NCBI GenBank assembly: GCA_963826115.1
Contig: CAWGVS010000004.1
Span: 160,001 to 224,000 of the forward strand
Direction of reading: 5' to 3'
Origin: an uncultured Candidatus Rokubacteria bacterium
GTDB taxonomy: Bacteria; Methylomirabilota; Methylomirabilia; Rokubacteriales; DASRDR01
DNA: 64,000 bases
Numbering within the stretch: the stretch's first letter is position 1; each line of letters opens with the position of its first letter. The translations under genes were made by a program, and so were the position numbers. This document shows positions 308 to 50,193 of this stretch, in pieces. Below the pieces are notes generated by a model. The model ran no database searches. It was not told the origin of the DNA and saw only the letters and a program-made list of their open reading frames with translations.

Positions 308-448
308 GTGCATCCTCTGTTCCGCCGCAGAGCCTTGAGCCAATGGGGTGGAGGGGCGTGGGGCCACAGGTCGAAGGCCGTCGGCCACAGGCCGACGGCC
401 GTCGGACGACGCGCCGCCGCTCCGCCCCCCGTGGACAGATCAACGTGA
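308..448 (+). repeat. Intergenic repeat element containing a 46-aa mini-ORF (MIRU-like), two tandem 21-bp units at 362-382 and 383-403
   Basis: ggccacaggtcgaaggccgtc and ggccacaggccgacggccgtc sit inside an outer stem (345-358 with 415-428). GTG308 follows AGGAG (299-303), and the ORF's TGA overlaps the next gene's GTG (GTGA 445-448). Confidence 0.65.
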
Positions 449-6130: not shown

Positions 6131-6151
6131 GCCCGCAGGCCTGAGGCCGTC
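6131..6151 (+). repeat. Degenerate 21-bp repeat unit (same family as 362-403 and 49457-49515)
   Basis: gcccgcaggcctgaggccgtc matches the consensus at 17/21 and fills most of the gap between the two genes. Confidence 0.55.
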
Positions 6152-6155
6152 CAGG

Positions 6156-47398: not shown

Positions 47399-48607
47399 AT
47401 GGCTGACCGGCGCCCCTTCCACCTCGCCACCGACCACGAGATCAAGTCGGGCGAGGTCACCGACGTCTACTTCAACCGGACGGTCCAGATCCTCCGGGCC
47501 CGGGGCAACCGGGCGCGCGTCAAGGCCGAGGTGTACCTGAAGAGCCTCCCGGGCGACTGGGGGTGGGGCATCCTCGCGGGCATCGAGGAAGCGGCCCGCC
47601 TCCTCGAGGGCCTGCCGATCGACGTGACCGCGATGGACGAGGGCACGGTCTTCGCCGCCTACCAGCCCATCCTCACCGTCGAGGGCGTGTACGTCGACTG
47701 GGCGGAGTACGAGACGGCGCTCCTCGGGCTCCTCTGCCAGGCGTCGGGGATCGCCACCAAGTCGGCCCGATGCAAGAAGGCGGCCGGGGAGCGGCAGGTC
47801 ATCAGCTTCGGCGCCCGCCGGATGCACCCCGGGCTCGCCCCCATGATCGAGCGGAACGCGTTCGTCGGCGGCTGCGACGGCGTGGCGGTGACGAAGTCGG
47901 CGGAGCTGATCGACGCCGATCCGATGGGCACGATTCCGCATGCCCTGGTCCTCGTCATCGGCGACACCGTGGAGGCCCTGCGCGCGTTCAACGACGTCGT
48001 CGATCCGAAGGTCCGGCGGGTGGCGTTGATCGACACCCTCCAGGACGAGAAGTTCGAGGCGATCCGCGTCGCCGAGGCGCTCGGCCGCGAGCTCTACGCC
48101 GTCCGGCTCGACACGCCGTCCTCGCGCCGCGGCGACTTCTACCGGATCCTCGAGGAGGTGCGCTGGGAGCTGGACTACCGGGGGTACGAGTACGTGCGCA
48201 TCATCGCCACCGGCGGCATCGACGAGTACCAGATGCCGCGGCTCAACCCCCTGGTGGACGCCTACGGCGTGGGGACGGCCATCGCCAACGCCCCCGTCCT
48301 CAACTTCGGGCTCGACATCATGGAGATCGACGGTCAGCCGATCGCCAAGCGCGGCAAGCACTCGGGGTCGAAGCGCGTCCTCCGCTGCCGCGCCTGCGGC
48401 AAGACGGTCGTCGTCGCCGCCCACAAGCCCGTCGATCGGTGCCCATGCGGCGGGTCGTACGAGGACCTCCTGAAGCCGCTCATTCGCGGGGGCCGTGTCG
48501 CGCGCGACTTGCCGCCGCCCCGCACGCTTCGCGAGCACGTCCTCGAGCAGCTCCGGCGCGTCCCGCTCGAGCTGCCGGGATCGGGCGGACTTCGCGGCGA
48601 CTTCTGA
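47399..48607 (+). CDS. pncB: Nicotinate phosphoribosyltransferase (archaeal-like, C-terminal Cys motif)
   Basis: TDVYF, FGARRMHP, GTIPHA, LIDT, VRLDT, ATGGID, YGVGT, KRGK, CRAC..CPC. Confidence 0.88.
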   Translation: MADRRPFHLATDHEIKSGEVTDVYFNRTVQILRARGNRARVKAEVYLKSLPGDWGWGILAGIEEAARLLEGLPIDVTAMDEGTVFAAYQPILTVEGVYVDWAEYETALLGLLCQASGIATKSARCKKAAGERQVISFGARRMHPGLAPMIERNAFVGGCDGVAVTKSAELIDADPMGTIPHALVLVIGDTVEALRAFNDVVDPKVRRVALIDTLQDEKFEAIRVAEALGRELYAVRLDTPSSRRGDFYRILEEVRWELDYRGYEYVRIIATGGIDEYQMPRLNPLVDAYGVGTAIANAPVLNFGLDIMEIDGQPIAKRGKHSGSKRVLRCRACGKTVVVAAHKPVDRCPCGGSYEDLLKPLIRGGRVARDLPPPRTLREHVLEQLRRVPLELPGSGGLRGDF

Positions 48608-48620
48608 GCGAATCGATGCC

Positions 48621-49403
48621 ATGGGACTCCTGGACGAGATCGTCGCCCGAAAGCGTGTGGACGTCGCCGCCCGACAGCTGGCCGTTCCCCGGGGCGCGCT
48701 CGCGGTCCGTGTCGCCACGCTCCCCGCGCCCCGGAGCCTCGCCGCGGCGCTGACCCCACGCGCGGCCGGCGCGGTCCAGGTCCTCGCCGAGCTCAAGCGC
48801 GCCTCCCCGGTCAAGGGCGTCCTTGCCGAGGGCTTCGACCCCGTGGCCCGGGCGCCCGAGTACGTGCGGGCCGGCGCGTCCGCCCTCTCCGTCCTGACGG
48901 ACCTGCACTTCCAGGGGAGCCTCGACGACCTGGACTCGGTGCGGGACCGGGTGGACTGCCCCGTTCTCGAGAAGGACTTCGTCGTCGACGAGTACCAGGT
49001 GTGGGAGGCGCGGGCCCACGGCGCGGACGCCATCCTCCTCATCGTGGCGATCCTCGAGCCCGGGCAGCTCGCCGACCTCTTCCAGGCCGCCAAGGGGCTC
49101 GGCCTCTCGGCGCTGGTCGAGGTCCACCGCGAGGCGGAGCTCGAGCGCGCGGCGGACCTGGGCGCGGGCCTCATCGGGATCAACAACCGCGACCTCACGA
49201 CGTTTCGGACCGACCTCGCGACCACCGAGCGGCTCGCGCCGCGCGCGCCGGCCGGCGCGTGCCTCGTCTCCGAGAGCGGCGTCGCCACGCGCGCCGACGT
49301 CCTCCGGGTGCGCGCGGCGGGCGCCCACGCGATCCTGGTCGGCGAGTCCCTGTCCCGGAGCGGCGACCCCGCGGCCAAGCTCCGCGAGCTTCTCGGGTCA
49401 TGA
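48621..49403 (+). CDS. trpC: Indole-3-glycerol phosphate synthase
   Basis: AELKRASP.KG, LSVLTD, KDF, GINNRDL, VSESG, LVGESL. Confidence 0.96.
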   Translation: MGLLDEIVARKRVDVAARQLAVPRGALAVRVATLPAPRSLAAALTPRAAGAVQVLAELKRASPVKGVLAEGFDPVARAPEYVRAGASALSVLTDLHFQGSLDDLDSVRDRVDCPVLEKDFVVDEYQVWEARAHGADAILLIVAILEPGQLADLFQAAKGLGLSALVEVHREAELERAADLGAGLIGINNRDLTTFRTDLATTERLAPRAPAGACLVSESGVATRADVLRVRAAGAHAILVGESLSRSGDPAAKLRELLGS

Positions 49404-49540
49404 GCGCAGCGAAGGCGGATCGCAGGCCCCGAGCCGACATACTCCCCGCGCCTCCTGGCCACCGGCCGCAGGCCGTCTCCGTATCGGGAGGGGTCGCCAC
49501 AGGCCGAAGGCCGTCCGACAGGGGGGGGCGACCCGAATGA
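49400..49540 (+). repeat. MIRU-like intergenic element with ATGA at both ends, encoding a 46-aa bridging ORF; 21-bp units at 49457-49477 and 49495-49515
   Basis: ATGA 49400-49403 (trpC stop) and ATGA 49537-49540 (trpF start) with an open frame between; stem GGGTCGCC 49491-49498 / GGCGACCC 49527-49534. Confidence 0.75.
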
Positions 49541-50185
49541 CCCACCTGCGCGTCAAGATCTGCGGGATCACGTCCCTCGACGACGCCCTCTGGGCGGCCG
49601 ACGCGGGGGCCGACGCCCTCGGGCTGAACTTCGTGGAGGGGACCCCCCGCTACGTCACGCCGGCCGCCGCGGCCGCCATCGTGGCGGGCCTCCCGCCGTT
49701 CGTGTGCCCGGTCGGCGTCTTCTGGGACCACGCGCCGGCGCACGTGGCCGCCGTCGTCGCGGAGTGCGGCCTCGAGGCCGTCCAGCTCCACGGCGCGGAG
49801 CCGCCCGAGCACGTGACGGCGATGCCCCGCCCGGTGCTGAAGACGATCAAGGTGCGGGACGCGGGCGACCTCGCCCAGCTCGACCGCTACAAGCCCGCGG
49901 CGTTCCTCCTCGACAGCGCGGCGCGCTGGAGCGAGGGCGAGCCGCGGCGCCCCATCTCCTGGACGCTCGCCCGCGAGGCGAACGCCCGGGGCCGCGTGAT
50001 CCTCTCGGCCGGCCTCACGCCCGAGACCGTCGGCGAGGCCGTCCGCGTCGCGCGGCCGTGGGGGGTCGACGTGAGCTCCGGCGTGGAGGCGGCGCCGGGG
50101 CGGAAGGATCCGGCGAAGGTGGCGCGATTCGTCCGAGCGGCACGCGCCGCCGCGGCGGAGCTCGAGGGTGAGGCGGAGCGACGCG

Positions 50186-50193
<8 letters not shown>
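49537..50193 (+). CDS. trpF: Phosphoribosylanthranilate isomerase
   Basis: [43 protein letters not shown]. Confidence 0.96.

Follow-up and report, generated by a model that had tools for sequence, protein, structure and literature searches.

A putative translational relay repeat at the trpC/trpF junction of an uncultured Candidatus Rokubacteria bacterium

A stretch of 64,000 nt from an uncultured Candidatus Rokubacteria bacterium (the window; C4:160001-224000 of the studied genome, G000, which comprises 6.24 Mb at 72% G+C in 12 contigs and is 99% complete) contains an insert between the genes trpC and trpF. This spacer is probably (rough probability 0.75) one copy of a superfamily of non-autonomous relay repeats that belongs to one genus, resembles MIRUs (interspersed repetitive units of mycobacteria), and occurs in a phylum unrelated to mycobacteria; the small open reading frame (mini-ORF) that it carries would be translated. 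Elements of the superfamily have a small hairpin core in common (CACAGGCC-GAA-GGCCGTCC), and are found in a single orientation at TGAG(C). This sequence includes the TGA that stops the upstream gene and, very often, an overlapping RTG with which the downstream gene starts. Each element brings an (R)TGAG(C) of its own at its end, so that the upstream gene keeps its stop and the downstream gene acquires a new start codon. Elements of the main family measure 56 nt, a length of the form 3n+2, and therefore contain a mini-ORF of 19 codons whose start lies on the stop of the upstream gene (RTGA) and whose stop lies on the start of the downstream gene (GTGA). The trp copy shows the same stop-to-start relay as the main family, but with 46 codons.

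The insert between trpC and trpF

The genes of G000 were called with a codon-based gene caller that was made for this analysis and is crude, and the two genes at the junction were identified by their Pfam domains. The features of the junction are as follows (window coordinates).

48621..49403, plus strand: trpC, indole-3-glycerol-phosphate synthase (gene call; Pfam IGPS, E 1.9e-80); its stop codon TGA is at 49401-49403
49537..50193, plus strand: trpF, phosphoribosylanthranilate isomerase (Pfam PRAI, E 4.5e-35, profile matched from residue 6); its start codon ATG is at 49537-39
49400..49540, plus strand: 46-codon relay mini-ORF that covers the entire insert; its ATG overlaps the trpC stop and its TGA (49538-40) overlaps the trpF start, both as ATGA
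49400..49405, plus strand: left boundary repeat ATGAGC, identical to the empty-site sequence in G002, G009 and G006
49537..49542, plus strand: right boundary repeat ATGACC, which is ATGAGC in G011 and supplies the trpF start codon
49458..49477, plus strand: unit 1, a diverged hairpin core (GGCC-GCA-GGCC) with 3 mismatches to the core
49491..49534, plus strand: module 2, an 8-bp stem (49491-98 / 49527-34) around unit 2 (49496-515)

The longest open reading frame (ORF) of trpC starts at 48495, and the match to the IGPS profile extends to the end of the profile, at residue 299 of 302. The N-terminus of trpF, MTHLRVK, is similar in the junction alignment to the MSHLRVK of relatives with an empty site. 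The ATGA at 49400-49403 and the ATGA at 49537-49540 are 137 nt apart, which is the length of the trp insert. A preliminary description of this DNA had reported an ATGA at both junctions and an open frame of 46 aa between trpC and trpF, and both the sequence and the Pfam identities of the flanking genes bear this out. The two repeat units and the 8-bp stem that it had seen in the spacer were also confirmed: the units were measured at 20 nt each and are identical at 18/20 positions, and the stem is perfect. The exact 19-mer core (GGCC-GAA-GGCC hairpin) of the insert is located at 49498-49516, inside module 2, and the 3' arm of the module 2 stem stops 2 nt short of the trpF ATG.

Empty and filled sites in related genomes

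The insert was found at the trpC/trpF junction of G011 and G008, with 85-86% identity. The bare overlap, which had been predicted for relatives as an empty ATGA site, was present in five sister genomes, as ATGAGC in G002, G006 and G009, as ATGAGA in G010, and as ATGATC in G005. In the outgroup families (G024 and G025), trpC and trpF overlap at GTGA, while G003 and G007 harbored other fillers that still end in ATGA. Judged from the compared junctions, the trp spacer appears to be an insertion and not an ancestral spacer. In G011, ATGAGC stands at both ends of the insert and the relay is a perfect one of 47 codons. The insert of G008 has four extra bases; its frame starts on a TGATG overlap and then continues in frame into trpF. 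All three filled genomes (G000, G011, and G008) therefore keep an uninterrupted reading path from trpC to trpF. A different insert, of 44 nt and with a CTCTCTCC-TTCG-GGAGGGAG hairpin, was located at exactly the same ATGAG site in G004 (locus L010); its right end matches the 56-nt family, and the trpF start has changed from ATG to GTG. This suggests that the trpC/trpF junction was hit independently a second time in G004.

Sites that are filled in the relatives had an ortholog in G000 in 23 of 27 cases. Among these 23 orthologs, two were filled, one carried a decayed copy, one an unrelated filler of 99 nt, and 19 were without the unit. Thirteen of the 19 unit-free sites lie between two called genes, and 6/13 of these are called 4-nt overlaps, as compared with 712/4330 co-oriented gene pairs genome-wide. 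The readable empty sites in G000 contained TGAG in 8/10 and TGAGC in 6/10 cases, whereas these sequences accounted for 35% and 25% of all 4-nt overlaps, respectively. In the cleanest pair (L039), the empty site reads GCGTGAG followed directly by AGTCGAG, and the filled site reads GCGTGAG, then 56 nt ending in GGTGAG, then CGTCGAG. The preliminary description had proposed that the insertion duplicates ATGA; this did not hold, as the end repeat is TGAG(C) and the element itself provides the base that makes the new start codon. At the filled sites L038 and L057, the left end is TGAC and the right end is TGAG, and these two sites give a thin indication that the right-hand TGAG may belong to the element, as in single-strand transposons.

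The 99-nt filler in G000 (C5:2041011-2041111), unrelated to the unit, itself forms a perfect GTGA-to-ATGA relay, and a 56-nt unit occupies the orthologous junction in G010.

Core, canonical unit and distribution of the family

The 19-mer core, CACAGGCCGAAGGCCGTCC, forms the GGCC-GAA-GGCC hairpin and gave 37 matches in G000 at up to 3 mismatches, including 29 intergenic matches at 21 loci and eight in or on genes, all of the latter with 3 mismatches. At up to 1 mismatch, the core was found 15 times in G000 and 8-86 times per genome in 13/14 sister genomes of the genus, was not found in four other genera of the family, and gave a single 1-mismatch match in the rest of the order (12 genomes). The reversed core pattern, which served as a control, gave 0 matches in all 31 genomes searched. 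The repeat unit is far beyond chance. The canonical unit, of which G000 contains many copies, is 56 nt long and consists of RTGAGCC, the core, GATCRAC..., GGGTAGCCCA, and GTGAGC. Read from its RTG, it is a mini-ORF of 19 codons (MSPQAEGRPI...) whose TGA lies inside the terminal GTGA. A sequence model of this unit (R1) had 13 matches in G000 and 9-78 per genome in 13/14 sister genomes. The proposal that the units in the trp spacer belong to a repeat family with further copies is therefore borne out by the core matches in G000 and the R1 matches in the sister genomes.

A scan for exact matches of the core that took one genome per prokaryote species gave at least 80 loci. Among the 80 loci listed, 68 are in metagenome-assembled genomes (MAGs) labelled Candidatus Rokubacteria or Methylomirabilota, three are from one unlabelled MAG, and nine are singletons of other taxa, only one of which has the full unit; among the core matches listed, none was from Mycobacterium. 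The labels of the core-bearing relatives indicate that the lineage is not actinobacterial, as had been surmised from the sequence. A MAG labelled Actinomycetota (L126) contained a complete canonical unit of 56 nt that has GTGA at each end and is flanked by coding sequence; this represents either a mis-binned contig or a transfer.

A longer family of ~150-190 nt, found in other MAGs, has the same core and is bounded by TGAG...TGAG. Its right end is composed of GGGAGG, 7 nt, and (A/C)TGAG, in effect a ribosome site followed by a start codon. The core serves as a module in at least three composite families, namely those of 56 nt and ~150-190 nt and a third that was seen in one MAG. The trp insert has the layout of the long family, and is an atypical two-module relative, 137 nt in length, of the main 56-nt unit.

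Strand, position and relay phase

The core was on the strand of the genes at 18/18 of the co-oriented junctions of G000 that contain it (p 4e-6). The remaining core loci of G000 comprised two in sense, each after a gene and before a convergent neighbour, and one in a divergent region. At the 27 loci of the relatives, the best upstream coding frame was on the strand of the unit in 20/22 cases, and the best downstream frame in 24/26. The ORFs that flank eight canonical units had Pfam domains in 16/16 cases, and the flanking pairs include mraZ and rsmH, an FtsJ-S4 methyltransferase and an NAD kinase, TetR and HlyD, and an AMP-binding protein and an ABC ATPase.

The strict relay test, applied to spacers of 30-250 nt, required that ORFs follow one another without a break, the start of each 1 nt before the stop of its predecessor, and that the chain end in the frame of the downstream gene. 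A perfect NTGA relay was present in 7/17 core-bearing spacers as compared with 122/1781 core-free spacers (Fisher p 9e-5; 9-fold enrichment). Copies were thus non-random in both orientation and phase, as the preliminary description had anticipated. Three tandem 56-nt units at C11:93210 form a chain of four mini-ORFs, and the 163-nt spacer at C12:466265 passed the strict test. Near-misses included one 57-nt copy that stops 9 nt before GTG and three copies whose frame reads through into the downstream gene. At C4:139067-139116, a decayed copy is missing half of its hairpin but has retained both the 56-nt spacing and the relay. Tandem arrays of two to three units exist, and one orthologous locus contained two units in G009 and one decayed unit in G000.

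Strict NTGA chains were also commoner than in shuffles in the core-free co-oriented spacers of G000 in the same length range (122/1781 vs. 79 +/- 5). Possible sources of this excess are decayed elements, other relay families, or start codons miscalled by the crude gene caller.

Weighing of alternative explanations

Several observations weigh against the assignment of the trp spacer to a family of relay repeats. Presence of the insert does not follow flank similarity, because the site is empty in G009 at 88-89% flank identity and filled in G011 and G008 at 85-86%; therefore, loss, excision or transfer must also have occurred. A hidden Markov model of the long family, built from 12 loci of other MAGs, had as its only match in G000 module 2 of the trp insert (E 3.5e-4). 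The trp copy thus matches the long family over module 2 only, and its membership of that family rests on architecture, not on full-length similarity. A perfect relay was missing in 10/17 core-bearing spacers of G000. The 27 loci from 13 relatives had RTGA at the left end in 22/27 cases, GTGA at the right end in 26/27, a spacing of exactly 56 in 18/27, and a perfect relay in 17/27; these counts favour a relay, but they are upper bounds because the loci are the best matches of a model that contains the ends. In the richest genome, G003, only 7/23 loci passed the automatic chain test, which was limited there by short flanks and the crude gene caller; five of the 23 loci are followed by a gene of opposite strand, and single-base indels interrupt several of the 23. 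When the interior of the trp spacer was shuffled, the frame stayed open in 11248/20000 cases (56%), and an open frame alone proves nothing in DNA of 72% G+C. Finally, G000, which is nearly complete, contained no Y1 transposase domain (PF01797), no TnpB domain (PF07282), and no transposase linked to the unit.

The unit could also be an ordinary extragenic palindrome of the REP/REPIN type that is mobilised by RAYT and acts at most on mRNA stability, in which case the mini-ORF and the NTGA ends would be by-products of high G+C and of abundant overlapping junctions. The small GC hairpin of the unit, the frequency of open frames by chance, the imperfect relays of approximately half of the copies, and the presence of a 313-aa RAYT-type gene in 9/14 sister genomes are in line with this explanation, which is nevertheless unlikely. 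In 4/6 loci, the RAYT-type gene had inverted copies of another 21-mer repeat on either side, whereas the relay core was on its flanks in 0/6, so that the RAYT/IS200-type transposase flanked by the unit, which the preliminary description had envisaged, was not recovered. Both G000 and G012, the latter with 51 units, lacked a Y1 gene. An inverted pair was present at only 1/21 loci of G000, and REPs would not be expected to show a spacing of exactly 56 nt, the strand bias, or a 9-fold enrichment of relays. The unit also folds worse than its shuffles: the canonical 56-nt unit was less structured than its own shuffles (z +1.68), a result more in keeping with a translated spacer than with a stabilising hairpin. 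As regards a MITE derived from a DDE transposon, the direct repeat TGAG(C) is present, and no terminal inverted repeat was seen by eye in the alignment of the units. No autonomous partner of the relay unit was found. A RAYT/IS200 link of the relay unit was rejected in view of the other repeat on the RAYT flanks and the lack of a Y1 domain in G000.

The other 21-mer is the basis of a second repeat family with long inverted arms (GGGGTCAGGCCTTAACTTTGA type), which had 23, 28 and 35 copies in G000 at up to 2, 3 and 4 mismatches, respectively, and 0 in the reversed control. Examples were located in the G000 spacers C4:14729, C5:1399801 and C6:518070, and at L021-L024 in relatives. G000 keeps this family but is without the RAYT gene.

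The remaining alternatives concern the trp spacer itself. A local tandem duplication of the trpC/trpF junction would account for ATGAGC at both ends, but the interior of the insert resembles neither the 3' end of trpC nor the 5' end of trpF, and contains the dispersed core of about 20 other G000 loci, with hundreds of copies across the relatives; such a duplication is very improbable. The same low standing applies to a trp-specific cis-regulator, i.e., an attenuator leader peptide or an RNA switch between trpC and trpF. The position within the trp operon and the stem that adjoins the trpF start would fit a regulator, whereas the mini-ORF has no Trp codon, a search of Rfam at E up to 1 gave no match, the insert is absent from five sister genomes and two outgroups, and the same units occur in unrelated operons. 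Least probable of all is a functional small protein encoded by the 46-codon frame. The frame is open in both G000 and G011, but a Pfam search with the 46-aa product gave no match, the four extra bases in G008 shift the spacer into another frame that is fused to trpF, and the two units of the trp copy are read in different frames. An explanation that starts from RNA structure was dropped because none of three foldings was exceptional relative to shuffles, namely the whole trp spacer (z -0.05), its two-module part (z -0.08), and module 2 (minimum free energy -27.8 kcal/mol, z -1.44).

Proposed mechanism

As a relay repeat, the trp insert would pass ribosomes from one gene to the next. After terminating on trpC, ribosomes would start again on the mini-ORF and, while reading it, melt the stem that lies over the stretch immediately upstream of the trpF ATG. 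Ribosomes would then terminate on ATGA and re-initiate on trpF, and by such termination-reinitiation the insertion would not be polar. Copies would survive only where the relay works, which would produce a bias in orientation and phase. This strand and phase bias may come from the mechanism of insertion, from selection against polar copies, or from both.

How the unit moves can be proposed only tentatively. It might be moved by machinery that recognises the stop/start overlap RTGAG and always pastes in sense, either via an RNA copy of the operon transcript or by an enzyme unrelated to Y1 and TnpB, and this proposal is doubtful. If true, the unit would represent a transposon that has adapted to how the genetic code is punctuated, with a portable stop, mini-ORF, ribosome site, and start. 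Units could then colonise essential operons such as mraZ-rsmH and trpC-trpF without polarity, and the host might tune gene ratios with them.

Comparison with known systems

MIRUs were reportedly described by Supply et al. in 1997. The available text of two reviews describes them as units of 40-100 bp in 40-50 copies that lie within a polycistronic transcript; some sites are empty and others filled, with tetranucleotide direct repeats, the internal inverted repeats are rich in GC, the ends of the ORFs overlap the genes on either side, and insertion takes place at start codons at a spacing of -4 (PMC3184786, PMC12548453). The relay repeats are similarly short (56 nt), have tens of copies per genome, and are located between genes of one putative transcription unit in the orientation of these genes. 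Both contain small ORFs whose ends overlap the stop and the start of the neighbours with a 4-nt coupling, although this is not universal among the relay copies. Both have empty and filled sites with tetranucleotide direct repeats at the ends of the filled sites, GC-rich internal inverted repeats, and tandem arrays. Each structural trait of MIRUs thus appears to have its counterpart in the relay repeats. On the other hand, the relay repeats are found in another phylum, use a common hairpin core as a module of at least three composite families, and have a boundary repeat, TGAG(C), that is the stop codon itself. There is probably no sequence relation between the two, and the likeness, which was compared by description, is one of design.

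Like the REP/REPIN elements with their RAYT, the relay units are short GC-rich hairpin repeats that are lineage-specific and intergenic, with tens to hundreds of copies. Unlike these, they are neither in inverted pairs nor beside a RAYT gene, and they are strictly in sense, with a fixed length of 3n+2 and with start and stop codons at their ends. REP/RAYT membership of the relay unit fails on the features that define this system, namely the inverted pairs and the repeat beside the RAYT gene. The non-autonomous derivatives of IS200/IS605, which are single-strand "peel and paste" elements, insert in a single orientation beside a short, specific target that is similar to their own right end, have hairpins near their ends, and leave apparently clean empty sites, all of which is reminiscent of the relay unit. 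However, G000 is without a Y1 or TnpB domain, and the 56-nt unit has only one clear hairpin. A further parallel is offered by synthetic bicistronic designs and by natural termination-reinitiation at ATGA/TGATG overlaps, in which, as far as the available text of the source goes, a short leader ORF that ends on the start of the target gene delivers the ribosome and opens local RNA structure (PMC12548453). The relay cassette differs from these designs in that it occurs naturally as a dispersed repeat and has a coupling of its own to the upstream gene.

In the full-text literature searched, from which most subscription journals are missing, no such repeat was found described for Rokubacteria and no MIRU-like element outside mycobacteria. 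To our knowledge, MIRUs have since 1997 been the only textbook example of repeats whose insertion on start codons stays harmless owing to translational coupling. The available portion of a 2025 review cites only MIRUs for such repeats (PMC12548453). What is new here is that a design like that of MIRUs occurs in a phylum unrelated to mycobacteria, and that its boundary (TGAG) is defined and its core modular. As a second family of this kind, probably unrelated to MIRUs, the relay repeats provide hundreds of copies in 14 genomes, many pairs of filled and empty sites, a defined boundary, and a modular hairpin core, and therefore make both the mobility mechanism and the selective filter accessible to comparative analysis. 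These repeats also matter for the annotation of high-G+C MAGs, as downstream starts at relay junctions are easily miscalled and mini-ORFs are easily mistaken for genes. The relay unit would be a natural version of the bicistronic cassettes that are used in expression design.

Other copies and neighbouring genes

Further occurrences of the core in the window are as follows.

365..404, plus strand: two tandem 21-nt core units in another spacer between co-oriented genes, read in the frame of the gene downstream
6134..6152, plus strand: a single diverged core, with 3 mismatches, that immediately follows a TGAGCC stop; the co-oriented spacer is 25 nt long

Elsewhere in G000, three core units with spacings of 28 and 24 nt precede a Rossmann-type gene (C5:1482812-1482945), and the conserved motif IGFVGLGRMG of this gene follows in frame. 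No ATG, GTG or TTG was found between the core units and this motif; the gene may start at CTG or ATC, or the assembly may contain an indel. At C10:386096-386267 and at C12:466265-466429, arrays of half-units of the core lie on either side of it, left halves of ~12 nt upstream and right halves of ~14 nt downstream, which look like slippage on each arm of the hairpin. The gene just 5' of trpC (window 47399-48607, plus strand) encodes QRPTase_N/C domains (quinolinate phosphoribosyltransferase), and not the anthranilate phosphoribosyltransferase family that might be expected in a trp cluster.

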